From: Oscillospiraceae bacterium
Lineage (GTDB): Bacteria; Bacillota; Clostridia; Oscillospirales; Ruminococcaceae
Length of the DNA: 64,000 nt
Assembly: GCA_009777155.1 (NCBI GenBank)
Contig: WRMK01000002.1
Coordinates: 213 to 64,212 of the forward strand
Direction: 5' to 3'
Shown piece by piece: positions 6,251-63,853 of the stretch (position 1 is its first letter; each line of letters starts with the position of its first letter). The notes under the pieces were generated by a model that saw only the letters and a program-made list of their open reading frames with translations, was not told the DNA's origin and made no database searches. The position numbers and the translations under genes are program-made.

Positions 6251-6345
6251 GATTATTCTCCATGTCCTTCCTGCACAAAAGTGCATTTGAAAGTATCGTT
6301 CCCTCACAGTGAAATTCCCCTGATTTGCACCGGTTCTTTCAAACT

Positions 6346-7413
6346 TTAAACCTTCCCCTTCCTCACAGCCTCCAAAATCCCACTCAAATAACAAACCCCC
6401 ATAGCCCTATCATACAACCCATACCCCGGCATCGCCACCTCACCCCACACCATTCTGCCGTGGTCGGGGCGGAGCGGGCCGTTGAAGCCGATGTCGTGAA
6501 ACGCCTTGATAATCTCGTACATATCGAGCGAGCCGTCCTCGGACAAATGCGCCGACTCGTCAAATTTCCTGTAGCCGAGGTGCTTAATATTGCGGACGTG
6601 GGCGAAGTGAATTTTGCCCTTCAACGAACGGATTATGTCGGGCAAATCGTTGTCGGGATTAGACCCGAGCGACCCGGTACAAAGCGTAATTCCGTTGCAC
6701 GGCGAATCGACCAACCCCGCAATCTTATGCAAATCGTCCTTGTTTTTGACAATCCGCGGCAACCCGAACACGCTCCACGCGGGGTCGTCGGGGTGGATAG
6801 CCATTTTTATGTTATATTTTTCACAAGTGGGCATAATCGCCTTGAGAAAATAGCCGAGATTTTCGCGCAATTTGTCTTCATCAACGCCCTTGTAAATCCC
6901 GAAAAGCTCCTTGTTACGCGCCATACGCTCGGGTTCCCACCCCGGCAACACAAACTCACCGCGCTTACTTTCAAGGCTTTTGAGCATGTCTTCAAAGTCC
7001 ATGTTTTCGATAATGTCGCCGTCGTATGAAAGCACCGTCGCGCCGTCCGGGCGGGGCTTCGCCAAGTCCGAGCGGGTCCAGTCGAATACAGGCATGAAGT
7101 TGTAGCAAACCAAGTCTATGCCACATTCGCCAAGGCGTTCAAGGGTTTTTATGTAATTGGAAATGTACAGCTCACGGCTGTTCCCGCCCGCTTTAATATC
7201 GTCGTGAATATTCACACTCTCAATGCCCGACAACTCCAACCCCGCGCCTTCAACGCGGGCTTTGAGTGCCTTGATAGCCGAAGTCTCCCAAACCTCGCCC
7301 GGCATGGTGTCATAAAGGGTCGAAATCACGCCCTTAACAGCGGGGACTTGTCGGATTTGCTCGGGCGTAACGGCGTCAAAGCCGTCCCCGAACCAGCGGA
7401 AGGTCATCTTCAT
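6346..7413 (-). CDS. uxuA: mannonate dehydratase
   Basis: MKMTFRWFG... N-terminus and overall length typical of UxuA. Confidence 0.9.
   Translation of the reverse strand: MKMTFRWFGDGFDAVTPEQIRQVPAVKGVISTLYDTMPGEVWETSAIKALKARVEGAGLELSGIESVNIHDDIKAGGNSRELYISNYIKTLERLGECGIDLVCYNFMPVFDWTRSDLAKPRPDGATVLSYDGDIIENMDFEDMLKSLESKRGEFVLPGWEPERMARNKELFGIYKGVDEDKLRENLGYFLKAIMPTCEKYNIKMAIHPDDPAWSVFGLPRIVKNKDDLHKIAGLVDSPCNGITLCTGSLGSNPDNDLPDIIRSLKGKIHFAHVRNIKHLGYRKFDESAHLSEDGSLDMYEIIKAFHDIGFNGPLRPDHGRMVWGEVAMPGYGLYDRAMGVCYLSGILEAVRKGKV
6372..6395. repeat. direct repeat copy 2 (inside the uxuA 3' coding end)
   Basis: Encodes CYLSGIL of UxuA; duplicated at 5768-5791. Confidence 0.8.
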
Positions 7414-42691: not shown

Positions 42692-42740
42692 CATTATTCA
42701 CTATTCACTATTCACTATTCACTATTCATTATTCACTCAC
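42692..42740 (-). repeat. heptanucleotide array (7 units) overlapping the stop codon of the glucan-synthase-like gene
   Basis: Sense strand reads GGT GAG TGA ATA ATG AAT AGT GAA TAG TGA ATA GTG... Confidence 0.8.
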
Positions 42741-48700: not shown

Positions 48701-49905
48701 CCCTGCCACGCGTTCTGAGTCTTGCAAAACTTCCGCTCCCTTATGAGTATTACAAAGTCGCCCGCCCCCGAAAACGTCTTCTCTGCAATTGCCAAAAGCC
48801 GCTCGTCATCGGGATTTTCAGCGTTATCGGCGGGTTTAAGGTCACATAGCAGGGCGAATTTTATGTTGTCTGAATTATTTTTAAGTCGTGCCTCCCGTAA
48901 TTTTCCAAACCCGCTGACAACGTCCTTTTCGGAGGCAATCAGGGTCGAGATTACGCAGATAGTCTTGGCGCGGGGGGGAACTTTGCCCTTGAGGGCAAGC
49001 CGCGGAATCAGCCCGTCGCGCTTGACGGATTTTATGGCAATATAATCCACAAGCGGCTTGAGTATAGCAAGGCAGGGTACGAACAACAACGCCGCCCAAG
49101 CCCAGCTCGAAACATCCGCGTAACACCACGCCAGTACCGCCGTAAGCAGGGCGGTAGGCAGAAACAACGCCGTCAAGTACGCCCGCACCCGCACAAACGG
49201 GAACACGCGGCGGTAGTCTTTCGCGATGATTTCACCTACATGCAGGTTCTCCGCCCTGCTCCGATTCATGTACTCGTTGGACAACCGCGCCTCATCAATC
49301 CCGGTCGCAATCGCAATCTCAGAGGTTTTGCGGCGATAATCGGCGCGGGTCTCCTCGGTCAATTTGGGATACAAAGTATCCGCCGAATACAACAGTTCCA
49401 CAGGGTTCAACGCCGCGCAAATCCGCTCAGGCTCTAAGTCGGTCAAGGCACTGAGTTTCTCCCCGAAGTTATCGCCATTTCCGACACCATTAATCGCATC
49501 GGAAATCACGCAGTACTTCGCCTGCCATATCAGGCTATCAATATCCATCGACGTCAGCGGCTTGACCGCCGCCAATCGCGACACCACATTCACAATCATC
49601 TCGGCGGAAATCTCCCGCATTGAGCCTACAACCCCGCCCAAGACGGGGGTTTTAACGCCGTTTGCAGAAAGGTACATATTTATATAAAAACCTTTGTGGG
49701 CGCGGATAAGCATGCCGAGTTCCTTCTCAAGCATGCGTTTCTCGCCCGGCAAAGGCGCGGCCTCGCGGGATTTATTCGCCGATTGCGCCGATTGCGCTAA
49801 TTTGCGCCGCAACTTCCTAAGCGGCGAGTACAACCCACTCACAGGCAGTACCTTCCACTGCATAGCGGCAATCTCGGTAATTTTTTCTGTGTTATCTTTT
49901 AACAA
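42733..49905 (-). CDS. cyclic beta-1,2-glucan synthase-like protein (GT84 + membrane region + GH94-like phosphorylase domain)
   Basis: 2390 aa; ALDYDTVP GT motif, multiple TM helices, C-terminal GGDWCDGYN...GGQYTHAAVW GH94-type motifs; TTG start behind AAGGAG. Confidence 0.8.
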   Translation of the reverse strand: MLKDNTEKITEIAAMQWKVLPVSGLYSPLRKLRRKLAQSAQSANKSREAAPLPGEKRMLEKELGMLIRAHKGFYINMYLSANGVKTPVLGGVVGSMREISAEMIVNVVSRLAAVKPLTSMDIDSLIWQAKYCVISDAINGVGNGDNFGEKLSALTDLEPERICAALNPVELLYSADTLYPKLTEETRADYRRKTSEIAIATGIDEARLSNEYMNRSRAENLHVGEIIAKDYRRVFPFVRVRAYLTALFLPTALLTAVLAWCYADVSSWAWAALLFVPCLAILKPLVDYIAIKSVKRDGLIPRLALKGKVPPRAKTICVISTLIASEKDVVSGFGKLREARLKNNSDNIKFALLCDLKPADNAENPDDERLLAIAEKTFSGAGDFVILIRERKFCKTQNAWQGHERKRGAILAFAELLRGGVSEARKCGFRAVYGSRSALHDIAYIMALDYDTVPLMDSVSELVGIALHPLHKHKGIIAPRITTTLDSYLKTGFSRAMAGNGGCAGASSYDCFSGEMYQDCFGEGIFTGKGLINVDMLLDKCSGFREERILSHDILEGGCLGVVYAGDIEFNDSFPDTSAAYFKRQHRWLRGDLQNFRYIFRRNFSPLTRWKLLDNVRRAVTPLFIFLCFAIAAVRPNPARLDLLALVGLLAITMPFLMGFFPSVIRGRRFAFYRRFYSPVISQTKQLLRQCLMEIMFAVKNALISADALVRTLWRMLITKKHLLDWNTASSLEGLKSGVSHILLAEIVSAALLMAALVNGNMLVVLLGVIFMCLLPLTLYIDRTSGKTTPKFTKAMRAELLQNARKMWAFYTDYVTAEHNFLPPDNVQYSPVYRVSARTSPTNIGMYLLSCAAARTFGFITKDEFVSRVEKTVGTVERLEKWHGNLMNWYETHELKVISPFVSSVDSGNFVCCLIAVKQALRECNSSEELIARIEKIAAETNLKPFFNKARNLFSIGFDLDSQSLSRHSYDLIMSEARMLSYYAIATGQADKKHWRSLGRVMGRSGSYAAPVAWTGTMFEYYMPELLLGSKEGSMEYEALRFSLHCQQKRGRETGLPFGMSESGYYAFDEALNYQYKAHGVQTVGLKGGLNKERVISPYSSFLSLGIDPIASYNNLVKLEKLGVSHSKYGFYEAADFTKHRVGSGYAVVKSHMAHHVGMSMAGVCNALHGGKLQKLFLSDPDMKRAEELLEEKIMAGEPVLATPEWQEEQSYRMNSTEFTEFSCADIQVNPLSNGLLTVLTSNIGLSMSLYGKKSGFYKTVDLLNPRGTLFGFVEGENIMPFLNHPCVVAPEKSDKSDKVEKSAVFFQNSTEHYLNCRNLRLGLQTYLHCDKAVEIRRFAAENLGNKKRQLNLAVYLEPALARFRDIAAHPAFMDLFLKLHYDAENCLIIAKRKERTSDAETVMAIGFRDKREFTFSFNREEVISRNGGIISSLEKAAALETNTTSVPCPCVFIKVDFPLDAYGKSDTDLMICYGASEREVLALAADIRRGEAEKPCEEIISPLVRETMYGRFAARILPAVVYAPVAKTSAVQSENKKAVMKNNLGLNALWELGISGDYPIVLFEFKDGIKGGVVSASGADAIVEMKKALWLCGVEFDLVMLCENEAQINLVRSLQKEIGTEIFVVCGTSTNPALINLIRAAACYTQRSDELLPKSKAKVKSREFLPILPCGKPESGKLENRFEGEKFIIENSPDLPWCNILASSRFGTLLSDRALGFSWALNSRENKLSPWNNDLRADNKGEMLLLKFEGRAIYDLIDGSRATFAPNRAVYHGIVGNLHAKTTVNVFEKGMGKEIVLELENRSKKPKCFEVAYYVEPVLGVTRENARLIIPTLQVKDNTLIFKNPANGVFSGAMMMYSDNSDCSFMTGRQAFFEGDWNAEKSVNPAHDIIGAVVIKIELPPKHTDKIRFILAFTKNTKRPLTMKEALRNKRSAPLIEAVPIDTGDERLNALYSYWLPWQVIGGRLWARTGFYQNSGAYGYRDQLQDCLAAMLLRPEIAKRQILRACTAQFVEGDVLHWWHDMETHNKGVRTRYSDDLLWLPFVTAEYVDFTKDYDILETKIHYADGPLLADGEKEKYIEVGITDFKESVYLHCKRAIDKAYAKGSHGLLLMGGGDWCDGYNNVGLKGRGESVWLSMFYVMLCKNFAKTAMMMGDTEYSADLKRRSAEITAAIDASAWDGGHYLRAFYDNGKEMGAAKNDRCKIDLLPQAFATLAEMPDEHRKSAALRSAEEQLCDTRNRLVKLFTPPFARGRSWQEPGYVESYPEGVRENGGQYTHAAVWLAMAYLKAAESSRETCPHDNKTCYKAKTAGSSRENCPNDNKACNKAKAAELLRLLAPFGRGGEYKTEPYYMAADIYTNSRAYGRGGWSIYTGSAGWYFWVLGEVFGGGE

Positions 49906-49940: not shown

Positions 49941-50275
49941 CACTACATACAGCAAAATTTTTGCAAATGTGAAGTGGCAGTCGGGGCAGAGGGGGGTAGT
50001 AGGGGTCTATGTCTGCGCCGCCGCTTTGAAACGCACGCCCGCCGCACAAACCGTTCAATCCCCGCAACATCGACAGCGAGTTTTCCCCTTGGCGACCTAT
50101 GGGTTCGCTATACATTAAAAGTCCGCCCCCATAAGGGGTTCTTCCATCTACAAAGTCTTTGGCACGAGAGAGTTAAGTTTTAGCAAGTGTAAACGCGGGT
50201 TCGTGCAGTTTCAAAGCGGCGGCGCAGACATAGACCCCTACTACCCCCCTCTGCCCCCCCCTCAAGTCCATGAAG
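49941..50275. mobile_element. long-arm hairpin element, copy B (outer flanks inverted relative to the core)
   Basis: See findings. Confidence 0.7.
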
Positions 50276-50415: not shown

Positions 50416-51066
50416 ATGACCGGTAGTAAATCTGCACTCGTGGCGACTGTTGTGGTGTTTATTTTGGCTGTTGCGGCGGCCGTCTTTGCGTTTTGGTACA
50501 TCGGGGGGGACTCGCAGTCGGGCGGCGACATCGCGAGTATACCCGACGACGATGTTTTTGAACCCACGGCTGACGAGCGGGCCGAAATGACCGACGCCGC
50601 CGATAGGTTAATCAAAAATAATCACAGAGTGGTACAATTATTCCTCACCCAAGGCCTCCCCGCCCTGCCCGAACCCTACGGCAACCGCCCCGAAAACGAT
50701 ATTTATTATGTAGACAGCGACGAGTATTTAACCCTCAACGATATATCCACCTTGGTTTTCGATACCTTCTCGGGGGCAGAGGCCGAGCGGATTATGGACG
50801 GCACCACCAATTTCGGCAACCCGTTCTTCCGTGGCGCGGTCTATTACGATAAGGACGGCAGTCTCGGCATACACATGAACTTTCAACCGTATGAGGACTA
50901 CCCCGTCAACTGGACCAACCCCTCGTATCAGTTAAGCCCGGTGTCCGCAGATGAATGTCTGTTGACCCTCGAGTTGTCAATCGACAACCAACGGGCGACT
51001 TTCGTCCGTACTATGTCCAAGCGCGGCAACCACTGGGAGCTCGACCGCATTATCCTCAATGAATAA
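50416..51066 (+). CDS. membrane-anchored hypothetical protein (216 aa)
   Basis: N-terminal TM helix; overlaps the atpZ start by 8 nt. Confidence 0.6.
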   Translation: MTGSKSALVATVVVFILAVAAAVFAFWYIGGDSQSGGDIASIPDDDVFEPTADERAEMTDAADRLIKNNHRVVQLFLTQGLPALPEPYGNRPENDIYYVDSDEYLTLNDISTLVFDTFSGAEAERIMDGTTNFGNPFFRGAVYYDKDGSLGIHMNFQPYEDYPVNWTNPSYQLSPVSADECLLTLELSIDNQRATFVRTMSKRGNHWELDRIILNE

Positions 51067-51361
51067 ACGCGACAACCCGATGTCGGCGTACATTGTGGCA
51101 AGTCACATTGCATTCGTTGTGATTACGCCGCTCCTGCTGTTCATAGGCGGCGGGGCGTGGCTCTGCGACAAGTTGAGCCTGCCCGACTGGACTAAACTGC
51201 TGATGGTACTTGTCGGCGTGGCGGTGATGATATTGTCGCTGATTTCGTACTTGATGAGACTGATTAAGATGTACGACGGCGATTCAAAGGGTGTTGAAAA
51301 ACAAAAACCTGCCTTTAAGGGCGAGAGTGACTACTACTATGAAAACGATATCGAACCGTAG
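51059..51361 (+). CDS. atpZ: AtpZ/ATPase_gene1-like small membrane protein
   Basis: Two TM helices with a GGGAWLCDKLSLPDW motif; sits at the head of the atp operon. Confidence 0.6.
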   Translation: MNKRDNPMSAYIVASHIAFVVITPLLLFIGGGAWLCDKLSLPDWTKLLMVLVGVAVMILSLISYLMRLIKMYDGDSKGVEKQKPAFKGESDYYYENDIEP

Positions 51362-51761
51362 AGTTAAATCCGAAGCGGAAATAATCGCACTTGAAGAACT
51401 GAAACAGATGACCCCCTTCTTCCTGATTGCAAACGGCGCAGTGCTACTAATCAGCGGAATCCTCGGCTTATTTATAAAGGTAGACTGGGGCGTTTTCACG
51501 GGGTTGCTTATCGGCAACATAGCGGCGGCGGTAAACTTCTACCTAATCGGCTTCACCACAGGCCGCGCAATCAGGCGCAGGGACACAAAGCGGGCGCGGA
51601 GCTACTTCGCATTCAGCTACGGCATGCGTATGCTGGGGATTTTCGGAGTGTTTGCAGTATTGATTACGTTCGGGCTAATCAACCCGATAACGGCGATAGC
51701 CCCACTGCTCTACCCGAGTGTGTATTATAAGATTCGGGCGGTGTTTAATAAGTCGGTTTGA
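51339..51761 (+). CDS. atpI: ATP synthase protein I
   Basis: Four hydrophobic helices, position before atpB; start trimmed to ATG 51339. Confidence 0.6.
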   Translation: MKTISNRRVKSEAEIIALEELKQMTPFFLIANGAVLLISGILGLFIKVDWGVFTGLLIGNIAAAVNFYLIGFTTGRAIRRRDTKRARSYFAFSYGMRMLGIFGVFAVLITFGLINPITAIAPLLYPSVYYKIRAVFNKSV

Positions 51762-51791
51762 CAACATTTAACAATGTCCGTTTAATTTATA

Positions 51792-51882
51792 CGGGCGAAC
51801 GCAGTTCGCCCCTACATGGCGCAAGTCTACTGTGTTGTGTAAAATTCCTGAGCGTAGGGGCGGGATTTCCACGGTCCGCCCG
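51792..51882. repeat. REP-like hairpins
   Basis: cgggcgaacgcagttcgcccctaca; gtaggggcgggatttccacggtccgcccg. Confidence 0.8.
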
Positions 51883-51918
51883 CACCTCAAAGTCGCTCGA
51901 CCGTGAAAGGTATTAACC

Positions 51919-52680
51919 ATGAGAAAATTTACAACGATTATCACCCTCTGCCTCGTGCTGACCTTGGCGGCGTGTGGGTTTGAACCCACAGGCGTCGTTT
52001 CGGAGGGTGGCGAGACCCTGCCGCTCCCCGAACCTCGTGACGTCTCGGACGCTCCCGAAACTCCCGATGAACCCATTGAACCCGACGAACCCATTGAACC
52101 CAACGAACCCGATGAACCCACTGAACCCGCAACCACAGGTGCAGTCGCAATCGCAACATACGAGCGCGGTATCCTAACCGACACATCCTTTGAAAGCGAC
52201 TACCTCGGGCTTAGATTCACCCTGCCCCCCGGATTCGTAATGGCGACACCGGAGGAAATCCTCGACATGATGGATTTGGGCGCGGCCGCCTTCGATTTAG
52301 ACCAAGATATAGTGGATTACGCGGCACTCACAGCGACTTACGACATGGTGGCGTTCAGCCCCGCCGGCTTCCCGAACGTCATTGTCCTAACCGAGCTTAT
52401 GCCGATTAGCGACATAACGGTAGAGCAGTATTTTGACAACGTCAAGGTTATGTTTGCATCAACCGGCCCGGATTTCCGGTTTGGCGACTTAGGAACGATA
52501 GAAGTCGCAGGCGAGACCTACACAAAACTCCCCGCAAGCCTTGAAATGCTCGGCGAAACGGTTTTGCAGGATTATATCATGAGGAAACATGGCGACAGAA
52601 TGGTCGGATTCATACTTTCATACACAGACGAGACCGCAGACGAAGCCGAATTATTAATGGCGGCGTTTGAGAAATATTAA
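51919..52680 (+). CDS. lipoprotein with a PExP-rich linker, inserted between atpI and atpB
   Basis: Lipobox LTLAAC; (PDEPIE)n low-complexity linker. Confidence 0.7.
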   Translation: MRKFTTIITLCLVLTLAACGFEPTGVVSEGGETLPLPEPRDVSDAPETPDEPIEPDEPIEPNEPDEPTEPATTGAVAIATYERGILTDTSFESDYLGLRFTLPPGFVMATPEEILDMMDLGAAAFDLDQDIVDYAALTATYDMVAFSPAGFPNVIVLTELMPISDITVEQYFDNVKVMFASTGPDFRFGDLGTIEVAGETYTKLPASLEMLGETVLQDYIMRKHGDRMVGFILSYTDETADEAELLMAAFEKY

Positions 52681-52713
52681 CAATAGACGATTGCGAAACT
52701 CGCCGTTTAGAGG

Positions 52714-53034
52714 TCATGGACTTGAGTGGGGGCAGAGGGGGGTAGTAGGGGTACGGCGGCACAAGGAATTGCCGGCCCGCCACACAAACTCATCTAATTC
52801 CACTTCCTCGATTGCGACCTTACAAGTTCACGACTTGACAAGTTTCATCTATTTGAAAAGTCTGCACTCGCAAATAGGCTCGTGCTACGTGATAACGGTT
52901 CGGCTCGAGAAGGTTAAGCTCTATCAAGCGTAGAACGCGGGCGTGCGATTCCTTGTGCCGCCGTACCCCTACTACCCCCCTCTGCCCCGACTGCCACCTC
53001 ACATTTGCAAAAATTTTGCGGTATGTAGTGAGTT
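52714..53034. mobile_element. long-arm hairpin element, copy C
   Basis: Arms ggggcagaggggggtagtaggggtacggcggcacaagg / ccttgtgccgccgtacccctactacccccctctgcccc; core about 90% identical to copy A. Confidence 0.7.
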
Positions 53035-53081
53035 TCGCAATCTCTTAAAATATTAAAAATTAAAGGAGGATTCCTATTCGC

Positions 53082-53804
53082 ATGTATAATTTTACAATAA
53101 TCGCGGCGGCTGAAAAAGCCCCGTTCGACATGAGCCTGCCGTACATAGCAACCTCCTTTGAGCTTTTCGGCATAACCTTCAACCTCACCTCGTCCGTAGT
53201 CACACAGTGGATTGTCATGGTCTTTTTAGGCATACTGTTCTTTGTCTTAGGGCGCAATCTCAAGGTAAAACCGACCGGCAAAAGGCAGATGATTGCCGAG
53301 GCGATTGTCACCTTTTTCAGAGACATGGTAATAGACGGCATGGGCGAAAAATACGTAGCCTACACGCCCTACATTGCGACCGTTCTGATTTCGTCGCTGA
53401 GTTTCAGCTTGTCGGGGCTTTTCGGGTATCGCCCGCCGACCGCGGACATAATGGTGCTCGGCTCGTGGGGGATTATCACCTTTATTTTGACACAGCGCAA
53501 CAAGTTCAAGACCGGCGGCGTGAAAGGCTTTTTCAAAAGCTTCATCGACCCTACTCCGGTAATGCTCCCGATGAACCTTGTCGGCGAGTTGACGAATCCC
53601 TTGTCACAAGTCTTCCGTCACTTCGGGAATATCTTAGGCGGCATGCTGATTATGGGCATTGTCTACTGGGCTTTGGGAAGTTTCGCGGTAGTAGTCCCCG
53701 CAGTGCTGTCGCTCTATTTCGACCTGTTCTCCGCGACGATACAGGCGTATATCTTCGCAATGCTGACGATGGTTTATGTGTCGAGCGCGGACTGCAGTGA
53801 GTAG
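53082..53804 (+). CDS. atpB: F0F1 ATP synthase subunit a
   Basis: Conserved Arg region LSQVFRHFGNILGG. Confidence 0.9.
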   Translation: MYNFTIIAAAEKAPFDMSLPYIATSFELFGITFNLTSSVVTQWIVMVFLGILFFVLGRNLKVKPTGKRQMIAEAIVTFFRDMVIDGMGEKYVAYTPYIATVLISSLSFSLSGLFGYRPPTADIMVLGSWGIITFILTQRNKFKTGGVKGFFKSFIDPTPVMLPMNLVGELTNPLSQVFRHFGNILGGMLIMGIVYWALGSFAVVVPAVLSLYFDLFSATIQAYIFAMLTMVYVSSADCSE

Positions 53805-53826
53805 TGGGTAGTGGGTAGTGGATAGC
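53796..53826 (+). repeat. heptanucleotide array overlapping the atpB stop codon
   Basis: AGT GAG TAG TGG GTA GTG GGT AGT GGA TAG C. Confidence 0.75.
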
Positions 53827-53861
53827 TATATATCCGGACGATTGCAAAACCTACTGTTTTG

Positions 53862-53960
53862 CGGACGGGCAATGCCCGCCCCTACAATATGTAGATGAAA
53901 AATAAAGCCGAGCCTCCCCATGTAGGGGCGCAGCATTACTTCGCAAGCGATGCGCGTCCG
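53862..53960. repeat. REP-like hairpins (composite block also at 60763-60846)
   Basis: cggacgggcaatgcccgcccctacaatatgtagatg is shared by both loci. Confidence 0.85.
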
Positions 53961-54005
53961 TGAGTTTCGCAATCGGCTATACATATATCGCAAAGGAGGA
54001 GTACT

Positions 54006-54149
54006 GTGGAAACGACTTTACAGCTTGCTTCGTGGGGCGGTTCGCCCGCGATGACGATACAAGAGCGTTTTGCAAAGTACCCCGGAAACTATTTTGAAGA
54101 AAAAGAGTGCGATTGGGGAGACGATGTCGGCGAGGAAATTCTCGTGTGA
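54006..54149 (+). CDS. 47-aa ORF resembling a collapsed MazE/AbrB-type antitoxin
   Basis: AAGGAGG SD + GTG; SWGGSPAMTI (like KWGNSLAVRI) and a C-terminal DWGDDVGEEI (like DWGxPVGxEVW). Confidence 0.3.
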   Translation: METTLQLASWGGSPAMTIQERFAKYPGNYFEEKECDWGDDVGEEILV

Positions 54150-54379
54150 ACGCGAAGCCCACTCAGGGTACAGCGCACCGAGATACCCCGCAAACCTTTC
54201 AGGCGCAGGTAATCCCCGCAAACCCCAAAACAAGCAAAACACTTTCGTAAACTAACCCTTGTCGGGTAAAAATAAAACAAAAATAAAACTTGGAGGTTAA
54301 AGTTTTCAAGACCCGGTGCAAATCGGGGAAAACGAAACTTTCAAATGCACGTTTGTGCAGAAAGGACATGGTGAATTAC

Positions 54380-54658
54380 ATGGAAATGGAAATGGCTACA
54401 ATATCGGCGAAGTCGGTTGTATTGGGCTTTGAAGCCCTCGGCGCGGGGATTGCCCTGCTTGCGAATATCGGTACCGGTATCGGGCAAGGTATCTGCGGAA
54501 GCAAAGGTGTCGAAGCGGTCGGCAGACAGCCCGAAGCGGCGGGCATTATCACCCGCACAATGATAGTAGGCGACGCAATCGCGGAAACCGGCGGTATCTA
54601 CGGCTTCGTGTTCGCGCTGATGGTCATGTTCATGCGCCCGTTCTCGAGCAATCTGTAG
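54380..54658 (+). CDS. atpE: F0F1 ATP synthase subunit c
   Basis: GIGQG...RQPEA...AIAETGGIYGFV; start uncertain (ATG 54368/54380/54386/54392). Confidence 0.85.
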   Translation: MEMEMATISAKSVVLGFEALGAGIALLANIGTGIGQGICGSKGVEAVGRQPEAAGIITRTMIVGDAIAETGGIYGFVFALMVMFMRPFSSNL

Positions 54659-54699
54659 TATACAGTTTGTACAAATAACAGAAAGGGCTTAGTGAAAAC

Positions 54700-55194
54700 A
54701 TGGATAAATACTTAGATATTATCAGTATTGACCCCGGTACAATCCTGTTTACCTTGATTAACACCTTGGTAATTATGCTGATGTACAGGTTTTTCCTGCA
54801 CGCAAAAGTGGTCGTAATCCTTGACAAGCGCAAAGCCGCCGTCTCGGCAGAGCTTGACGCCGCCGAGGCCGCGAAAGTGGCCGCACTCGAGAAAGAGGCC
54901 GAGTATAAACTCTTGCTCGAGAATTCAAAAGCCGAAGCCGAGAAAATCCTCAACGCGGCTAATTCTCGCGCACTCGCAAAGGAGCGCGAAATTCTCGCCG
55001 AAGCGAACATCAACGCCCTGCACATTCGTGAAAAGGCGGAGGAAGGCATTGCGCTCGAGAAAAAGCGGGTCATGAACGAAATCAAGAACCAAATTTCCGA
55101 GCTTGTCATAATGACGGCGTCTGCCGTGGCGGAAAAAGAAATAGGCGAAAAAGACAACGAAACGCTGATTAACAGCTTTCTTGTCAATGTTTAG
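54700..55194 (+). CDS. atpF: F0F1 ATP synthase subunit b
   Basis: N-terminal TM helix plus a long Ala/Glu/Lys helix. Confidence 0.85.
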   Translation: MDKYLDIISIDPGTILFTLINTLVIMLMYRFFLHAKVVVILDKRKAAVSAELDAAEAAKVAALEKEAEYKLLLENSKAEAEKILNAANSRALAKEREILAEANINALHIREKAEEGIALEKKRVMNEIKNQISELVIMTASAVAEKEIGEKDNETLINSFLVNV

Positions 55195-55202
55195 GTGATA
55201 CT

Positions 55203-55766
55203 ATGAAATCGGTTGAGAACGTATATTCAACGGCACTGTTGGATTTGTTGTCGGACGAACACGGCGACAACCAAGCGGGCTACGCGCAGATTCTAAGCGA
55301 GCTTGCCGCTGTAAATGGTGTGTTCAATACGAACCCGGAGCTTGCGAAACTCTCGCTCATCCCCACAATTTCGCGCGGGGATAAGCTTCGTGTAATCGAA
55401 AATATTTTCGGGCGTTCGGGCATGGGTGTGTCAAGGTACACCTTGAATTTTCTGTTGGTGCTTTGCCGCGAGGGCAGACTGCCGCGGTTCGGCGCGGTCT
55501 ACCGCGAATTCATGGCGCGGTACTACGAGAAATTCGGCATCGTCCCCGTGACGGTGACTTCTGCCTTTGTGCTAAACGCAAAACAGCGCGAGAAACTTAC
55601 CGAAAAAATGCAGAGCATCACCGGTAAGAAAGTGCAATTGACCGAAAAGACCGACAAAAGCCTTATCGGCGGCGTGGTAGTCAGCTACAGCGGCGTCCGG
55701 CTCGACGGCAGTGTCAAAAACCGCCTTGAAACTATGAAGCGAGAAATCGCGGACGTTGTTTTATGA
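55203..55766 (+). CDS. atpH: F0F1 ATP synthase subunit delta
   Basis: OSCP-like; LIGGVVVSYSGVRLDGSV motif. Confidence 0.85.
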   Translation: MKSVENVYSTALLDLLSDEHGDNQAGYAQILSELAAVNGVFNTNPELAKLSLIPTISRGDKLRVIENIFGRSGMGVSRYTLNFLLVLCREGRLPRFGAVYREFMARYYEKFGIVPVTVTSAFVLNAKQREKLTEKMQSITGKKVQLTEKTDKSLIGGVVVSYSGVRLDGSVKNRLETMKREIADVVL

Positions 55767-56212
55767 GCACTGTGAGTATTATGACGCGAATCTACATTAT
55801 CAAAGCCGACTTTTCAAGTATCACCGAAAAGTCCGAGCGCAAAACCTACAAAAAACATATCAAGATTACCGAGAAATTCAACGCCCGCCTAAAGAAACAC
55901 AAGTATCGGGTACTCTATATCGGCGAGAGCGATTTCCCCGAAAGCGGCTACGCGGCTATCCGCCAAAGAATAGCCTCTTGCAAGTGCGTGTTGGCGTTCA
56001 CGGACGGTAAAACCTTTGAGACCAATCACCGTACCGAAGAATTAACCCACGCAATTATGGACGCAGGGATTCAAGTTTTCCTCTACACCGCACTCGACTC
56101 CAACTACGAGAAAAGCGCGTGGCTGGGCGGTCTAATCGACCTGCCACACGTCCATGTCCTGCCCGCCGACGTCAAAGGCGCGGTAAAACTAATAGATAAT
56201 ATTCTACAATAA
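55763..56212 (+). CDS. 149-aa hypothetical protein embedded between atpH and atpA
   Basis: ATGA start/stop overlap with atpH; no recognisable ATP synthase subunit motif. Confidence 0.65.
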   Translation: MSTVSIMTRIYIIKADFSSITEKSERKTYKKHIKITEKFNARLKKHKYRVLYIGESDFPESGYAAIRQRIASCKCVLAFTDGKTFETNHRTEELTHAIMDAGIQVFLYTALDSNYEKSAWLGGLIDLPHVHVLPADVKGAVKLIDNILQ

Positions 56213-56241
56213 AACCCCTCAACAAAAGGAGAAATTAAACT

Positions 56242-57762
56242 ATGAGTATGCAGTTACGCCCTGATGAAATTACCGCTCTTATAAAGGAGCAGATTAAGAA
56301 CTTCGGCGCGAAGGTCAGCCTTGCCGATACCGGTACGGTCGTCACCGTGGGGGACGGAATTGTCCGCTTGCATGGGCTTGAAAAGTGTATGCTCGGGGAG
56401 CTTTTGGCGTTCGATAACGGTGAGCAGTGCATGGCTCTGAACTTAGAGCAGGACTTCATCGGCGCAGTTATGCTCGGGAGTGACGCCGAAATCAGAGAGG
56501 GCGACACAGTCAAACGCACCGGAAACATCGTGTCGGTGCCGGTCGGCGACGCGCTACTGGGGCGGGTTGTCAACCCATTGGGATTACCTGTTGACGGCAA
56601 AGGCCCAATCTCGGCGGCAGAGAACCGCCCTGTTGAAAAGATTGCGCCCGGTGTAATCACGCGGCAATCGGTCAACGTGCCGCTTCAAACAGGCATAAAA
56701 GCCATTGACTCGATGATACCGATAGGCAGGGGTCAACGCGAGTTGATTATAGGCGACCGCCAAACAGGGAAGACTGCAATCGCAATTGACACCATTATCA
56801 ATCAGAAAAAAACCGATGTAATCTGCATATACGTCGCAATCGGACAAAAAAGCTCAACAGTCGCAACTGTAGTTGAGGAACTGAAAAAAGCGGGCGCAAT
56901 GGACTATACTATAGTAGTCTCTGCGGGCGCGTCCGAGCTTGCGCCTATCCAATATATCGCGCCATACGCGGGTTGCGCCATGGGTGAATACTTCATGGAG
57001 CAGGGTAAAGATGTGCTTATAGTCTACGATGATTTGTCCAAGCACGCCGTTGCATACCGCGCACTGTCGCTGTTGCTGAAACGCCCGCCGGGCCGTGAAG
57101 CGTATCCCGGGGACGTGTTTTACTTGCACTCAAGACTGCTCGAACGCGCCGCTCGCCTCAACAAAGACTACGGCGGCGGCTCAATCACCGCGCTCCCGAT
57201 TATCGAAACACAAGCGGGGGACATTTCCGCGTACATTCCAACCAACGTAATCTCAATCACAGACGGGCAAATCTTCCTTGAAACAGAACTGTTCAACGCG
57301 GGTATTCGCCCTGCGGTAAACCCGGGCGTATCGGTCTCGCGGGTTGGCGGTAACGCGCAAATTAAAGCAATGAAGCGGGTCTCGGGTACACTCAAATTGG
57401 AGTACTCGCAGTACAAAGAGTTGCAGGCGTTCTCGCAATTCGGCTCCGACTTAGACCAAGATACCAAGGATAGGCTCGCAAAAGGTGAGCGGATTGTGGA
57501 GGTTTTGAAACAGCCGAAAAACTCACCCGTGTCGGTCGAGAATCAGATTATAATTATCTATGCAGTAATCAACAATTTCCTAAAAGAGGTCGAACCCGCC
57601 AAAGTCGCCGACTACGAGGCCCAATTATCGAAATATTTCGACACACAGCACAGCGAAATCCTCGGCGACATCAAGGAGCGGCGCGAGTTGACCCCCGACA
57701 ACGAGAAGGCACTGCGGGCGGCATTGACGAAGTTTACTGAGGATTTTTTGAAGGGGAATTAA
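56242..57762 (+). CDS. atpA: F0F1 ATP synthase subunit alpha
   Basis: Walker A GDRQTGKT. Confidence 0.95.
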
Positions 57763-57873
57763 GCAGTCGGTTTTGACCTACACGGGCGAACCGAGTTCGC
57801 CCCTACAGACAGCACGCCCACAATGTTACAGGAGGGCGACAAAAACCGCCCGCAAATTAGGAGGTAACGAAAT

Positions 57874-57990
57874 ATGGCTAAAGCATCTTTGGTTTTGGGA
57901 ATAGTTTCATTGGTTTTTTCCGCCGCCGCATTGGCGTTGGTGGCGTTGTCGTTTTTTATTAAGAAGGTGTCCTATTTTGATGCGTATTAA
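57874..57990 (+). CDS. 38-aa single-TM peptide between atpA and atpG (not in the ORF track)
   Basis: AGGAGG SD 9 nt upstream; MAKASLVLGIVSLVFSAAALALVALSFFIKKVSYFDAY. Confidence 0.45.
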   Translation: MAKASLVLGIVSLVFSAAALALVALSFFIKKVSYFDAY

Positions 57991-58061
57991 ACCGTTAACA
58001 ACGGACGCGCAATGCGCGCCCCTACAGACGGCACGCGATAAAACGGAAAGGTACTGAAAAC

Positions 58062-58934
58062 ATGGCAAAAGGTAATATGAAGTCTATCAAACGGCGCATT
58101 AAAGTCGTCGGTTCCACCTTGCAGATTACCAAAGCAATGGAGATGGTGGCGTCGTCGAAACTTCGCCGTGCAAAGGCGCAGACCGAGCGTATGCGGCCTT
58201 ATTTCCACGCGCTCGACAAGCTTTTGTCGGGCATTGCCACTGAAAAAAAAGACTTCGCAACCATTTTCACCACCAAACGCAAAACCGTGAAAAACCGGCT
58301 GTTTATAGTAATCGCAGGTGACAGAGGGCTTGCCGGCGGGTACAATTCCAACATTTTGAAATTAGTCGCCGCCCATAAAAACAACGCTCCTGATACCGGC
58401 ACGAAAATAATCGCGGTCGGGAAAACTACGGTCGATTATTTCAAGAAAAATAAATACGACATCTCGGCTGAATTTCCGCACTTTTGCGACGACATCAAAG
58501 CCAGCCGCTGTGCCGATATAGCCCAGATTGCAATAAATCAATTCCGCTCCGGCGAGGTTGACGAGGTCTGGATTTTTTACACCGCGTTTATTTCCGCACT
58601 GCAACAGCAAACGACAGCGGTACAGCTACTGCCGTTCGTGGTATCGGAAACTGAAAACAGTGACGAATCGGCACAAGGCTTTACAAGCTACGACCCCTCC
58701 CCCGAAGCCGTTTTCGACCGCATAATCCCGAAAATGCTCATGAGCATGATTAGCTGTGCCTGTGTCGAGGCCTACGCCTCCGAGCAGAGCGCGCGCCGAA
58801 ACGCCATGGAGAGCGCGTCCGACAACGCCGAGGAGATGATTGAGAGCTTGTCACTGCAATACAATAGGCTAAGGCAGGAGAAGATTACGAACGAGATTAA
58901 TGAGATTGTCGGCGGGGCGAATGCGATTTCGTAA
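58062..58934 (+). CDS. atpG: F0F1 ATP synthase subunit gamma
   Basis: IKRRIKVVGSTLQITKAMEMVA N-terminus; ITNEINEIVGGA C-terminus. Confidence 0.92.
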   Translation: MAKGNMKSIKRRIKVVGSTLQITKAMEMVASSKLRRAKAQTERMRPYFHALDKLLSGIATEKKDFATIFTTKRKTVKNRLFIVIAGDRGLAGGYNSNILKLVAAHKNNAPDTGTKIIAVGKTTVDYFKKNKYDISAEFPHFCDDIKASRCADIAQIAINQFRSGEVDEVWIFYTAFISALQQQTTAVQLLPFVVSETENSDESAQGFTSYDPSPEAVFDRIIPKMLMSMISCACVEAYASEQSARRNAMESASDNAEEMIESLSLQYNRLRQEKITNEINEIVGGANAIS

Positions 58935-58942
58935 GGTTAAAC

Positions 58943-59081
58943 GTAGGGACGACCGCCCCCGGTCGTCCGCAATAAACGCCTTGTTTCCGATATTTAACGG
59001 ACGACCCGAGGGTTGCCCCGGACGTCCGCAATAAACGCCTTGTTTCCGATATTTAACGGACGACCGGGGCGGTCGTCCCTA
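58943..59081. repeat. REP-like hairpins with a tandem 59-nt duplication
   Basis: GTAGGGACGACCGCCCCCGGTCGTCCGCAATAAACGCCTTGTTTCCGATATTTAACGG repeated. Confidence 0.85.
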
Positions 59082-59107
59082 CAAAAATTATCAACGAGGA
59101 CAAAATT

Positions 59108-59275
59108 ATGCAGAAAGACTTGACTACAGCCTTACAAAAACCCTCATACGACTACACCCAATGGCGGCAGGAATATTTTGAGAATAATTATAAGTCCGAA
59201 AACAAATCGCGGCTCGAATGTTTCCTTAACGCCGCCGCAAATAACGACCCTAAAGGCATTTCGTTTGGATTGTAA
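59108..59275 (+). CDS. 55-aa hypothetical ORF between atpG and atpD (not in the ORF track)
   Basis: GAGGA SD 7 nt upstream of the ATG; MQKDLTTALQKPSYDYTQWRQEYFENNYKSENKSRLECFLNAAANNDPKGISFGL. Confidence 0.4.
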   Translation: MQKDLTTALQKPSYDYTQWRQEYFENNYKSENKSRLECFLNAAANNDPKGISFGL

Positions 59276-59287
59276 AAAAACAAATAA

Positions 59288-60715
<1,428 letters not shown>

Positions 60716-60762
60716 GGGTTAATACTGTTTTATTATAGGAGATTGCGAAACTCGTCGTCTAA

Positions 60763-60846
60763 CGGACGGGCAATGCCCGCCCCTACAATATGTAGATGGA
60801 CGGCAAAACCAAATCGCCATATGTAGGGGCGCGCATTGCGCGTCCG
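60763..60846. repeat. REP-like hairpins
   Basis: cggacgggcaatgcccgcccctaca; gtaggggcgcgcattgcgcgtccg. Confidence 0.85.
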
Positions 60847-61035
60847 TGGGATTTTGACCTTGCAATAAGCCACGCTTTTGAAGACATAAAAGAGGGCAGA
60901 ACCTATCCGGCAGATGAAGCCCTTAACGAGATACGCAGAGAACTTAACCTTAAACACATTGATACAGAGCAGTTAGTTTAAGCTATTGAAAACATAATTC
61001 CGCACACCCGTGCAGAAAGGGATTGCTGAAATATT

Positions 61036-61437
61036 ATGACCACTTTCAATCTCGAAATAATAACCCCCCACGGTCTATTCTTCCAAGGCGAGACCGAGGG
61101 CGTAGTCGTCCGTACTACAGTCGGCGACAAGGGCATTTTAGCCCGCCACGAGAACTACGCCGCCGCTCTCGGTACGGGGAAAATCCGCGTAATGCAGGAC
61201 GGCGAATACCGCACTGCGGCTTTGTCGTCGGGCATCGTAAAGGTAGACCGCGAGAAGACTTTAATTTTGGCGCAAAGCTGTGAATGGGGCGACGAGATTA
61301 ACATCGAACGCGCCGAAAAAGCCCGCAAAGCCGCCGAAGACCGCCTATCGGACAGCGCGCTCGGCGCGAACGAGCACGCAATCGCGGAGTTTAAGCTTAA
61401 ACGCGCCTTGAACCGCCTTGAGACGGCGGGGAGATGA
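61036..61437 (+). CDS. atpC: F0F1 ATP synthase subunit epsilon
   Basis: 133 aa; beta-sandwich plus helical hairpin layout; last gene of the operon. Confidence 0.9.
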   Translation: MTTFNLEIITPHGLFFQGETEGVVVRTTVGDKGILARHENYAAALGTGKIRVMQDGEYRTAALSSGIVKVDREKTLILAQSCEWGDEINIERAEKARKAAEDRLSDSALGANEHAIAEFKLKRALNRLETAGR

Positions 61438-61511
61438 TAGTGGGCAGTGGATAGTGGATAGTGGATAGTTGACAATGGGCAATTGGCAGTTGATAATGGA
61501 CAGTAAATAGT
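61435..61511 (+). repeat. heptanucleotide array (11 units) starting on the atpC stop codon
   Basis: TGATAGT GGGCAGT GGATAGT GGATAGT GGATAGT TGACAAT GGGCAAT TGGCAGT TGATAAT GGACAGT AAATAGT. Confidence 0.85.
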
Positions 61512-61512
61512 T

Positions 61513-61544
61513 ACGGACGACCGGGGGCGGTCGTCCGTTTTTTG
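61513..61544 (+). terminator. REP-type hairpin acting as the atp operon terminator
   Basis: acggacgaccg gggg cggtcgtccgt followed by ttttttg. Confidence 0.75.
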
Positions 61545-61573: not shown

Positions 61574-63853
61574 CTACCTCACCAACTTAACCGCAATAAC
61601 CGAAATATCATCCTCCCTCTCCTTATCACTCGAATACTTCGCGGCGTTCGCGATTGTTTGTGCGAAATGATTCATGTCCTGCTTGCCCCACTCGCTTTTG
61701 CCCAGCTCGTGTTCGAGCCATCTTTCTGATAATTCTGCGCCGTCGCTTGCCATAATTATCAGGTCGGAATTGCCGATTGTGAAACTCTGGCGTTCATAGA
61801 CAGGACGGTGATTTATACCCACGGGTAAACCCTTGCCGCCCGCCTTGACGACCTGCTTGTTGCAACTGATATAAGTCGGTGCGCTCCCCGCTTTGAACAG
61901 TTCGACGTCGCCGCTGTAGAGGTCGATTCTGCACACGTCCAAAGTCGCGAAACTTTCGTCTGCGGACTTGACGAGCAGCGAGTTATTTATTATCTCAATC
62001 GCCGCACTTATGTCCACTCCCGCACGCAAAAGTTTTATCAGCATGCCGCATGCGAACGCCGAGTCAATCCGCGCCCTGCCGCCGCTGCCCATGCCGTCCG
62101 AAAGTATGATATACGCGAACCCTTTTTTGTCGATAAAACTATCTATGTAATCGCCGCAATTTTTTTCGTTACTTCGGCTCACTTGATAGACGCCATATTC
62201 AATCGAAAACGACGCACGCTCGAACATTGTCAGCATAAAATCGTTGTTACTGTTGATGATTTCGGGTAGGTCAAATTCTCTCCTTAATGCCGACGAAATC
62301 AGCCCGCAAAGTTTCTCGGGGCTACACTTGAGGCGGCCTTTTCCGTAGGCTTCGATTGCGGCTTTGTCGTCTTCAAGAGTCACTGCCGCTTTGGGTTCAA
62401 AGATGCCGTTTTCAAACAGCAAATTTTCAACGGCGGCGGCAAGCGGCTTGTCGAAATCGGAGGACGAGCCGAACTCGCCCGACATCTTCAGCATCATCGT
62501 CTGTGTCGCGGAAATTTGTGACAGCAGAATCGTCCGCATTTGGGTAATTTTTCGATTGGCAGTATTGATTGCAGTAAATTCGCGGTACTGATTATTCAGC
62601 GCGGCCGCCAACTGCTCACGCTTGCCGCAACGATATGCAAGCGGGCCGTATAAATGCTCGGTTTTGATTACCTTGCCCTTGCGTAACAGGCCCGTCAAGT
62701 CGCTCATAATCCGCACTGTGTCATTATATTCGGTACCCCAACAGACCATGTTGTGACGGCAACGGCGGCAGACTTCCCCGCACGCCGTGTTGTAAACCCA
62801 CGCGACATCTTTGCTTGCGGCGCGGTCCAAAATCTCGGCGGTTTTTTCAATCGCAGTACGCACATCGCCCATCGCCTCGCCCGTGAGTTTCAAGCGGCGT
62901 GCGAAAATTTCCGAAACGTCCGCGCCGCCGCCCTTGGACGCAACCGTCTCGCGCCGAAATCGCCGGGTTAAATCATCGACGGGTATAAACATGAACATGA
63001 TTCCGCCCGCAATAATCGAGTTAATTTCGGCAAAACTATAGAGGTCAATCCCCGTGAACGCCGCGAAAATCCCGGTCGCCAAAATATACCCCGCCATTTG
63101 GGTGTACTTGCCGAGCCGTGCGAACAAGGCGGCGGCAGTGGCGGCGACTGCGATTGCCAACCCGCCCGCCATGTACTCGGGGTGAATCAAAACAATCCCG
63201 AACCCGCTCAAAACCCCGCAGATTGCACCCCCTGCATAACGGAATTTGTAGGAAAAGGCAACCGCGATTAGCGACCCCGCGAAAATCCCGAAATTCAGCA
63301 TACTTATGTCGAAATTCGCCAGCACCGCAATCAGCAGTATGTAACTTAGGCCCACCGATGCGTACCCGCCCGGCCGCATGATTGAGAGGTTTTTGCCGGT
63401 TAGAATATTGTCGCGAGTGACCCCTGCCGCATACGAGCCGAACCCGCTAATCAGCCCGAGCGCAGGTGCAACGAAGACAATATTCGCGCCGCTTTTCAGA
63501 ATCACGGTAGTCGCGAAAATCCCGATACCGGTGAGCAATGCGGTCGCGGAATTGCTCCATTTTGCGGTTTTTTTGGCGACAAAAAACCGAAACGCCGCCA
63601 CCGCCACCAACACGGCGATAATGTTTATGCTATCAATAAACCGCCCGCTGATGAAGAAGCCGATAAGCGCGCCCGACAGCGCGTAGAGCGCGTTCATGCC
63701 CGACAGCACGCTGATGAATATTGCCGCAAAAGGCGCGGTCCCGCCGAACAGCGAGGTCAGCCCCAGAAGCAGCCCCGCCGCCGCCATAATCGGCACGCGG
63801 GTGATGTTTTCCCTCAAGTCCAAGTTGGAGTTGAAATCTAAATCGGGTTTCAT
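61574..63853 (-). CDS. spoIIE: stage II sporulation protein E (PP2C phosphatase with a 10-TM N-terminal domain)
   Basis: Polytopic N-terminus; C-terminal ILSDGMGSGGRA...MASDG PP2C motifs. Confidence 0.9.
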   Translation of the reverse strand: MKPDLDFNSNLDLRENITRVPIMAAAGLLLGLTSLFGGTAPFAAIFISVLSGMNALYALSGALIGFFISGRFIDSINIIAVLVAVAAFRFFVAKKTAKWSNSATALLTGIGIFATTVILKSGANIVFVAPALGLISGFGSYAAGVTRDNILTGKNLSIMRPGGYASVGLSYILLIAVLANFDISMLNFGIFAGSLIAVAFSYKFRYAGGAICGVLSGFGIVLIHPEYMAGGLAIAVAATAAALFARLGKYTQMAGYILATGIFAAFTGIDLYSFAEINSIIAGGIMFMFIPVDDLTRRFRRETVASKGGGADVSEIFARRLKLTGEAMGDVRTAIEKTAEILDRAASKDVAWVYNTACGEVCRRCRHNMVCWGTEYNDTVRIMSDLTGLLRKGKVIKTEHLYGPLAYRCGKREQLAAALNNQYREFTAINTANRKITQMRTILLSQISATQTMMLKMSGEFGSSSDFDKPLAAAVENLLFENGIFEPKAAVTLEDDKAAIEAYGKGRLKCSPEKLCGLISSALRREFDLPEIINSNNDFMLTMFERASFSIEYGVYQVSRSNEKNCGDYIDSFIDKKGFAYIILSDGMGSGGRARIDSAFACGMLIKLLRAGVDISAAIEIINNSLLVKSADESFATLDVCRIDLYSGDVELFKAGSAPTYISCNKQVVKAGGKGLPVGINHRPVYERQSFTIGNSDLIIMASDGAELSERWLEHELGKSEWGKQDMNHFAQTIANAAKYSSDKEREDDISVIAVKLVR

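Follow-up and report, generated by a model that had tools for sequence, protein, structure and literature searches.

A conserved gene for a small protein with a predicted TIR/NDT-like fold between atpH and atpA in the ATP synthase operon of termite-gut Oscillospiraceae

We report here that the F1Fo ATP synthase (atp) operon of an Oscillospiraceae bacterium carries, between atpH and atpA, a gene of 149 codons which we have named orfX (55763..56212, + strand). The sequence analyzed is a stretch of 64,000 nt (GenBank assembly GCA_009777155.1, contig WRMK01000002.1, positions 213 to 64,212 of the forward strand), referred to in the following as the window; coordinates given without a prefix are those of the window. 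orfX is a real and conserved gene, it is under purifying selection, and its position between atpH and atpA is conserved as well. The predicted structure of its product is a five-unit beta/alpha, flavodoxin-like fold of the class found in TIR domains and nucleoside 2-deoxyribosyltransferases (NDT). On balance we lean towards orfX being a long-resident passenger, i.e., a small nucleotide-binding or N-glycosidase-like protein which is encoded on the atp transcript and kept for a function of its own.

Conservation of orfX at the atpH-atpA junction

The open reading frame (ORF) starts with an ATG at 55763 and ends with a TAA at 56210-56212. Its start lies within the stop of atpH (delta/OSCP subunit, 187 aa, 55203..55766, +), the two genes sharing an ATGA overlap (55763-55766, +), and its stop is separated by 29 nt from the ATG (56242) of atpA (alpha subunit, 506 aa, 56242..57762, +). 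This spacer contains the AAGGAG Shine-Dalgarno sequence of atpA (56226..56231, +). No Shine-Dalgarno sequence is present 5' of orfX (gcggacgttgtttt-ATG), and all other atp genes of the operon have a purine-rich one 7-12 nt upstream. Since orfX has none of its own, its translation should depend on ribosomes finishing atpH. Termination-reinitiation at ATGA gene pairs is among the matters described in PMC6728339, and the sequence of the junction suggests that orfX is coupled to atpH in this way; ribosomes reaching the stop of atpH would begin anew within the ATGA to translate orfX. Neither a promoter-like nor a terminator-like site was detected on the + strand between 55446 and 56881, and the single strong + strand terminator hairpin of the operon lies downstream of atpC (61513-61538). 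The GC content at third codon positions of orfX (0.61) is within the range of the operon (0.60-0.70). The encoded protein is soluble and basic (17 kDa, pI 9.2) and has no transmembrane helix, the maximal 19-residue Kyte-Doolittle mean being 0.94.

Orthologues of orfX were found between the genes for OSCP (delta) and alpha in four other lineages of termite-gut Oscillospiraceae, with identities of 37-62%. In lineage L001 the orthologue is 62% identical, overlaps atpH by ATGA and ends 4 nt before atpA; the same overlap and the same 4 nt are seen in L011/L012/L013/L019, where identity is about 40%. The remaining two orthologues show 44-48% (L010/L017) and about 40% identity (L015). In both L001 (2480-2505) and L011 (2820-2843) the last codons of orfX (K-G-V/T-stop) encode the Shine-Dalgarno sequence of atpA, AAAGGAG and AAAGGAA. 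It should be noted that the database gene call for L010 (P0003, 133 aa) is short at its N-terminus. The frame opens at L010:5914 (5914-6402), and the full orthologue of 162 aa, which includes the conserved beta1 segment 'RIYII', matches NCBI entry MCL2077203.1, a 'hypothetical protein' of an Oscillospiraceae metagenome-assembled genome (MAG).

Selection on orfX was assessed from the proportions of nonsynonymous (pN) and synonymous (pS) differences, which are given in place of dN/dS, dS being saturated. Across lineages orfX shows a pS of 0.76-1.0 (saturated), a pN of 0.19-0.42, and a pN/pS of 0.23-0.52, and for the same genome pairs pN/pS is 0.27-0.44 for atpH, 0.21-0.39 for atpF, and 0.13-0.16 for atpA. 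The reading frame is retained in all five lineages at 37-70% pairwise identity of orfX. Two pairs are well supported in the atpH tree, the window with L001 (bootstrap 98.5) and L011 with L015 (bootstrap 93.5), while the backbone is unresolved; the identities of orfX mirror both of these sister pairs, as predicted by vertical co-inheritance.

In two termite-gut metatranscriptomes, contigs from related strains (86-93% identical) cover positions 55841-56005, 55936-56124, and 56177-56498, the last of which spans the junction between orfX and atpA. Contig depth over orfX was 2-7 and similar to that over atpA. These RNA contigs support transcription of orfX, if only modestly, because such libraries can contain DNA.

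Fold, family and conserved residues

The family to which orfX belongs is small. A phmmer search of 1.84 billion representative proteins returned only eight matches, and profile searches in a collection of 5.8 billion proteins yielded 17-19 members; altogether the family counts about 20-25 proteins among the 5.8 billion. All samples of identifiable origin from which members derive are termite gut, two members are named as proteins of Oscillospiraceae MAGs, and the window sequence itself was found in termite-gut runs only. No second copy of the family exists elsewhere in the window. Two further candidates were discarded: a match in Treponema bryantii from the scan of genome contigs with orfX, which straddles the ends of two unrelated ORFs and was treated as spurious, and P0006, a BspA-LRR protein of 1976 aa with '8 stretches', which is a repeat artefact.

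The only recurrent match to a Pfam family was TIR_2 (PF13676, gathering cut-off 28 bits), and all scores remained below this cut-off. For the window protein, of which it was the single Pfam match, it scored 22.5 bits (E 1.7e-4); this is the best E-value of the family, in which 14 of 17 members matched TIR_2 at E<=1. The family consensus reached 24.5 bits (E 4.2e-5) over profile positions 8-93 of 122. None of the 17 members matched an NDT-type Pfam family at E<=1. Scans against NCBIfam, PADLOC, and PHROGs gave no meaningful match, and the PDB, searched by sequence with both the protein itself and the profile of its family, returned only noise. Nothing significant was found when the family profile (hhalign) and the family consensus (BLASTP) were compared with the TIR domain of human SARM1, nor when they were compared with the NDT of L. 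leichmannii (1f8x); both targets were exact PDB sequences.

The fold was predicted with AlphaFold2 on an alignment of 17 sequences; the alignment-free model was poor (predicted local distance difference test, pLDDT, 60.6), and the fold search made with it was not relied on. The alignment-based model (pLDDT 84.7; predicted template modelling score, pTM, 0.82) has five beta-alpha units, with strands at residues 8-13, 48-52, 75-79, 104-108, and 130-132, each followed by a helix. A Foldseek search of the PDB with this model listed the RPS4/RRS1 TIR, the cytidine monophosphate (CMP) N-glycosidase BcmB, several NDTs, DNPH1/Rcl, and SARM1, at E-values of 3e-3 to 3e-2 and template modelling (TM) scores of 0.5-0.7. 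TIR chains were among the top matches at TM scores of only 0.50-0.56; BcmB (4jen) reached a TMq of 0.58 and a TMt of 0.71 (E 3e-3), and the NDTs 8qc0, 8pqr, and 7o62, as well as the DNPH1/Rcl entries 9ia6, 8rpt, and 4fyi, gave 0.5-0.62. Mixed in with these matches were flavodoxin-like folds of a generic kind, among them type II dehydroquinase, the AdiA wing domain, a response regulator, and B12-binding domains. Against predicted viral structures the best match was NDT-like (TM about 0.62, E 6e-4), and CMP/hydroxymethyl-CMP hydrolase and TIR proteins were also found. From these profile scores and the model we assign orfX, as a new and very divergent member outside all curated families, to the TIR / N-(deoxy)ribosyltransferase-like flavodoxin group.

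A preliminary description of the window had already given the coordinates of orfX, its ATGA overlap with the atpH stop, and the 29 nt to atpA, all of which the sequence confirms. It had noted the lack of a transmembrane helix, in agreement with the hydropathy maximum given above, and had recognised no likeness to an F1Fo subunit, which is borne out by the Pfam, NCBIfam, and PDB searches. Its impression of a fold like that of TIR domains or NDTs appears to have been right as far as sub-threshold TIR_2 scores and Foldseek matches of the predicted model (TIR, BcmB, NDT, and DNPH1, which rank first or close to it in both structure libraries) can tell.

Ten residues are invariant in the family (Y11, Y63, C73, L77, F79, E93, T95, D112, L133, and A140) and four nearly so (D81, T84, R90, and P134). 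Y11, in the 'IY' of beta1, is invariant in all 16 sequences which cover this strand, and E93, at the start of the helix after beta3, in 18 of 18. A tryptophan four positions before E93 (W89) occurs in 14 of the 18 members, the five copies from atp operons contributing just one of these. The segments follow one another as beta3, an Asp, a loop, the (W)RxxE that opens the next helix, and beta4, which, when compared by eye, is the layout of the catalytic segments of TIR domains and of NDT/DNPH1. Judging from these residues, the model, and the analogy with such enzymes, we infer that orfX would bind a nucleotide or nucleoside (of the nicotinamide adenine dinucleotide (NAD+), nucleoside monophosphate, or deoxynucleoside monophosphate class) or cleave its N-glycosidic bond.

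orfX as a passenger and the rival readings

The distribution of orfX was addressed by a metagenome scan for relatives of atpH. The gene is absent from three of the eight lineages of the clade (L014, L016, and L018), and the outgroup (L021/L022) also lacks it at the junction; orfX does not accompany the ATPase genes in every lineage. The atpH identities of L014, L016, and L018 are 56-62%, as close as, or closer than, those of the orfX-bearing L010 and L011. In the lineages without orfX and in the outgroup the spacer between atpH and atpA measures 41-121 nt. The spacer of L018 (1141-1261) contains a 41-nt AT-rich palindrome and that of L016 (3547-3611) a hairpin, GGGGACGGCGTCCC. Across the clade, the atpH-atpA spacer is a variable spot. 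The delta residues DK[IV] and K[KN]RL are common to L014, L016, and L018 and suggest that these three form one group, and a single gain or a single loss would be enough to account for the distribution of orfX. Residues 4-22 of alpha, the N-terminus which binds delta, are nearly identical in lineages with and without orfX. Only a few positions of delta and of the alpha N-terminus differ in step with the presence of orfX, and these are more likely to be markers of clades.

Paralogues with 30-35% identity to orfX are located in operons unrelated to atp. They directly follow a ClpB/C-like AAA+ gene (L003-5), come after ftsH (L009) or a phosphopantetheinyl transferase (ACPS) gene (L024/25), belong to a cluster for polyamine biosynthesis in an Oscillospiraceae MAG (L006/7), or stand beside unrelated genes (L023 and L026). 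We looked for a recurrent neighbour, partner, or effector beside the family members and found none. The atp operons of the clade hold, moreover, other unrelated inserts and repeats, as detailed below. All this favours the passenger reading, in which orfX most likely entered the atpH-atpA spacer once, in an ancestor of the clade. It would then have been inherited vertically and kept by selection for its own function in an insertion-tolerant operon, and would not be a structural part of F1Fo. It would ride on the constitutive atp transcript, the amount of its product being linked to the amount of delta and probably lower.

Several observations weigh against such a passenger status. The position at the junction has been kept through deep divergence, with atpH identity down to 56%. 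In L001 and L011 orfX is wedged in from both sides, with ATGA upstream, 4 nt to atpA, and the Shine-Dalgarno sequence of atpA in its last codons, which is tighter than a casual passenger needs. The copies from atp operons form a subfamily of their own, with H96 instead of Y/F, T109, no loop insertion before beta4, and loss of W89 in four of five, and these features could reflect a specialised role related to the ATPase. As to the nature of the protein, the fold assignment is built on sequence scores below threshold and on structural scores which are modest (TM 0.5-0.7, E of about 1e-3 to 1e-2), type II dehydroquinase and other generic flavodoxin-like folds reach the same structural scores, and the hhalign and BLASTP comparisons with the single SARM1 TIR and NDT sequences were empty.

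The best of the alternatives, although we consider it unlikely, is that orfX is a lineage-specific accessory of F1Fo, made in step with delta by translational coupling and acting as an assembly helper at the junction of delta and alpha3beta3 or as a nucleotide-sensing regulator. The F1Fo of fermenting anaerobes mainly hydrolyses ATP to pump ions. Five deeply diverged lineages have the gene at this one junction, with an ATGA overlap or a very short spacer on either side of it; this would fit an accessory, as would purifying selection which lets orfX evolve only about 1.4-1.6 times as fast as atpH, the subfamily-specific residues which separate the atp copies from the paralogues elsewhere, and the predicted nucleotide-binding fold, which would suit a sensor. 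Set against these points are the absence of orfX from L014, L016, and L018 within the clade and from the outgroup, delta and the N-terminus of alpha showing no compensating differences; the paralogues in unrelated operons; the other clearly unrelated genes inserted into these atp operons; and the fact that no F1Fo subunit, chaperone, or inhibitor known so far resembles orfX. A more specific version, in which a TIR/NDT-like nucleotide binder was recruited as a delta-coupled accessory that senses or processes an adenine or nicotinamide nucleotide and so tunes assembly or ATP hydrolysis, strikes us as rather improbable.

The preliminary description, too, had proposed that orfX is accessory to the ATP synthase or regulates it. 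None of our results shows this, and the proposal is somewhat weakened by the three of eight lineages without orfX and by the paralogues elsewhere. Absence from close relatives had been named there as telling against it, and such absence holds for those three lineages but not for the other lineages of the clade, in which orfX is present. So had membership of an orphan family unrelated to the ATPase, which is true in part, in that other family members reside in non-ATPase operons. The description of the atp gene order as otherwise canonical does not stand, given a lipoprotein-like ORF between atpI and atpB and four repeat-bearing gaps of 299-575 nt.

A shade less probable than an accessory is a non-catalytic flavodoxin-like adaptor, e.g., a degenerate receiver-like or TIR-like scaffold which makes protein contacts only and in which the conserved Tyr and Glu are structural. 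The (beta/alpha)5 fold is generic, B12-binding domains, the AdiA wing domain, and a response regulator are in the Foldseek list as well, and D81 occupies the position of the receivers' phospho-Asp, the end of beta3. Nevertheless, there is no Response_reg match and no conserved acidic pair after beta1, and beta5 is followed by Leu-Pro in place of Lys-Pro; conservation at T109 is confined to the atp subfamily, and an invariant polar Glu and Tyr at 30% identity are more typical of a ligand site.

Doubtful, and slightly more so than the adaptor, is an immune or conflict role, in which orfX would be a TIR-type protein standing alone, either a sensor like ThsB or part of a toxin/immunity system, and would be lodged in constitutive housekeeping operons with its partner elsewhere. 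TIR_2 is the only recurrent family match, and one member touches ThsB_TIR. Members are scattered singly over many operons within a very narrow taxonomic range, as is often the case for conflict genes, and HicB-like and WapI-like genes occur among the neighbours of the L003 and L009 paralogues. On the other hand, none of the 18 members matched PHROGs or any ThsB or TIR model of PADLOC, and no recurrent partner or effector adjoins any of them. The long vertical residence at one site under steady purifying selection is unlike fast-turnover defence islands, and the Tyr in beta1 is that of NDT and DNPH1 and not the Phe or Ala usual in TIR NADases (PMC11204291).

A chance ORF in an enlarged atpH-atpA spacer, as might be suspected from the missing Shine-Dalgarno sequence and a database annotation of 'hypothetical protein' only, is excluded by a frame kept in five lineages at 37-70% pairwise identity with saturated synonymous sites, by about 15 further paralogues, by a confident fold prediction, and by RNA contigs over the ORF.

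Host operon and comparison with known systems

The atp transcription unit of the window, as we infer it, extends over 51059..61538 (+). It begins with an atpZ-like ORF (51059-51361, +), whose score of 26.1 bits against ATPase_gene1 is just under the cut-off of 26.6, and atpI (51291-51761, +), listed with a GTG start. As listed these two ORFs overlap by 71 nt, and for this reason the start of atpI may be further downstream. There follow the lipoprotein-like ORF (253 aa, 51919-52680, +), atpB (53082-53804, +), atpE (54380-54658, +), and atpF (54700-55194, +), then atpH, orfX, and atpA as described above, and atpG (58062-58934, +), atpD (59312-60715, +), atpC (61036-61437, +), and the terminator hairpin (61513-61538, +). 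The 253-aa ORF has a lipoprotein-type N-terminus (…LTLAACG) and a Pro/Glu-rich repeat, and no Pfam match. In the relative L010 atpB directly follows atpI without such an ORF, which apparently represents a second insertion into the operon of the window. The L010 operon contains in turn an aldo-keto reductase gene between atpG and atpD (L010 9067-10056) and a 125-aa ORF without a Pfam match between atpD and atpC (L010 11590-11967). The atp operons of this clade tolerate insertions.

The long gaps of the operon (575 nt between atpB and atpE, 299 between atpA and atpG, 377 between atpG and atpD, and 320 between atpD and atpC) are filled by a family of GC-rich hairpin repeats, e.g., ACGGACGGGCAATGCCCGCCCCTACA and GGGCGAACGCAGTTCGCCCCTACA. 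Such repeats are located at 51781-51836, 52683-52992, 53840-53931, 57772-57827, 58001-58032, 58947-59065, 60735-60847, and 61511-61536, and also at 50000-50258, and include a 50-nt tandem pair (58957-59065) and a 56-nt inverted repeat (52725/52937). They match no Rfam family and look like repetitive extragenic palindromic (REP) sequences or miniature inverted-repeat transposable elements (MITE).

The c subunit of the window (54380-54658, +) contains a Q (GIGQG) and an E-T…Y segment (AIAETGGIY), which we take to resemble the Na+-binding signature of the Na+-translocating F-ATPases of anaerobes. Upstream of the operon a 2390-aa ORF (42733-49905, -) is followed by a 216-aa ORF (50416-51066, +). 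The counterpart in L010 is a 2385-aa gene of the GH94/glycoamylase type followed by a 221-aa ORF, so that synteny between the two lineages extends to the wider neighbourhood. A gene for a SpoIIE-type sporulation phosphatase (61574-63853, -) converges on the end of the operon and so indicates a spore-forming Firmicute. Together with the termite-gut runs and the two Oscillospiraceae MAG proteins mentioned above, it marks the source as a clostridial inhabitant of the termite gut, most likely one of the Oscillospiraceae.

Few gene arrays of bacteria are as conserved as the atp operon. A gene for a soluble protein fixed between atpH and atpA, with translation apparently coupled to that of delta, is unusual, its position in the operon is unprecedented, and in a search of the literature we came across no gene described between atpH and atpA. 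If orfX is a passenger, as we hold more likely, it offers a clean natural case in which a foreign cistron has become stably lodged in an operon sensitive to stoichiometry, and would define a new minimal family of the TIR/NDT-like type with a putative Tyr-Glu pair. Should it touch the enzyme, gut anaerobes which run this enzyme as an ATP-driven pump would have a bacterial F1Fo regulator of a new class, and an accessory role would mean a non-immune job for a TIR-like fold. The general impact is limited because the family is so rare and restricted in habitat.

Known extra genes of F-type ATPase operons are atpI/uncI, atpZ, and the atpR of N-ATPases, which encode membrane proteins at the operon start, and known inhibitors are the zeta subunit and AtpTheta, short inhibitory peptides encoded elsewhere. 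Like atpI, atpZ, and atpR, orfX is a small non-core ORF which appears to be co-transcribed with the atp genes, and the window has an atpZ-like gene and atpI at the head of its operon in addition. orfX differs from all five in that it encodes a soluble 17-kDa alpha/beta protein amid the F1 genes, and it has no similarity to any of them. In comparison with CheY-like receivers only D81 at the end of beta3 fits; orfX lacks the conserved acidic pair after beta1 and a conserved T109, it has L133-P134 where receivers have Lys-Pro, and no family member matches Response_reg in Pfam.

Closer parallels are found among the enzymes of nucleotide metabolism. NDT, DNPH1, and BcmB resemble orfX in size (about 140-160 aa), in standing alone, and in their (beta/alpha)5 flavodoxin-like fold. 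Unlike these enzymes, the orfX family has neither an NDT-family match in Pfam (E<=1) nor an hhalign match to the L. leichmannii NDT, and the spacing between D81 and E93 is longer. A Gly-rich phosphate loop after beta1 is a feature of DNPH1 which orfX lacks. We know of no counterpart in NDT, DNPH1, or BcmB to the conserved SCxC at the start of beta3, to T95, or to D112 of orfX. With TIR domains, the 'TWRxxE(I/L)' of most family members shares, by eye, the W-to-E spacing of the alphaC motif (DWVHKEI in SARM1), set against which are scores all below the 28-bit cut-off, the absence of partner domains and effectors, and the loss of W89 in four of the five atp copies. Systems of anti-phage defence such as ThsB have no relevant PADLOC match among the 18 members, and no recurrent effector gene is adjacent to any of them. 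A Tyr in beta1 paired with the catalytic Glu is a hallmark of NDT, DNPH1, and one ThsB TIR, EcThsB2, the NADase TIRs usually having Phe or Ala at this position where orfX has Tyr (PMC11204291). The Tyr of orfX in beta1 and its Glu at the start of a helix, together with the Asp at the end of the preceding strand, resemble by eye the Tyr-Glu layout of NDT and DNPH1 (PMC11204291).

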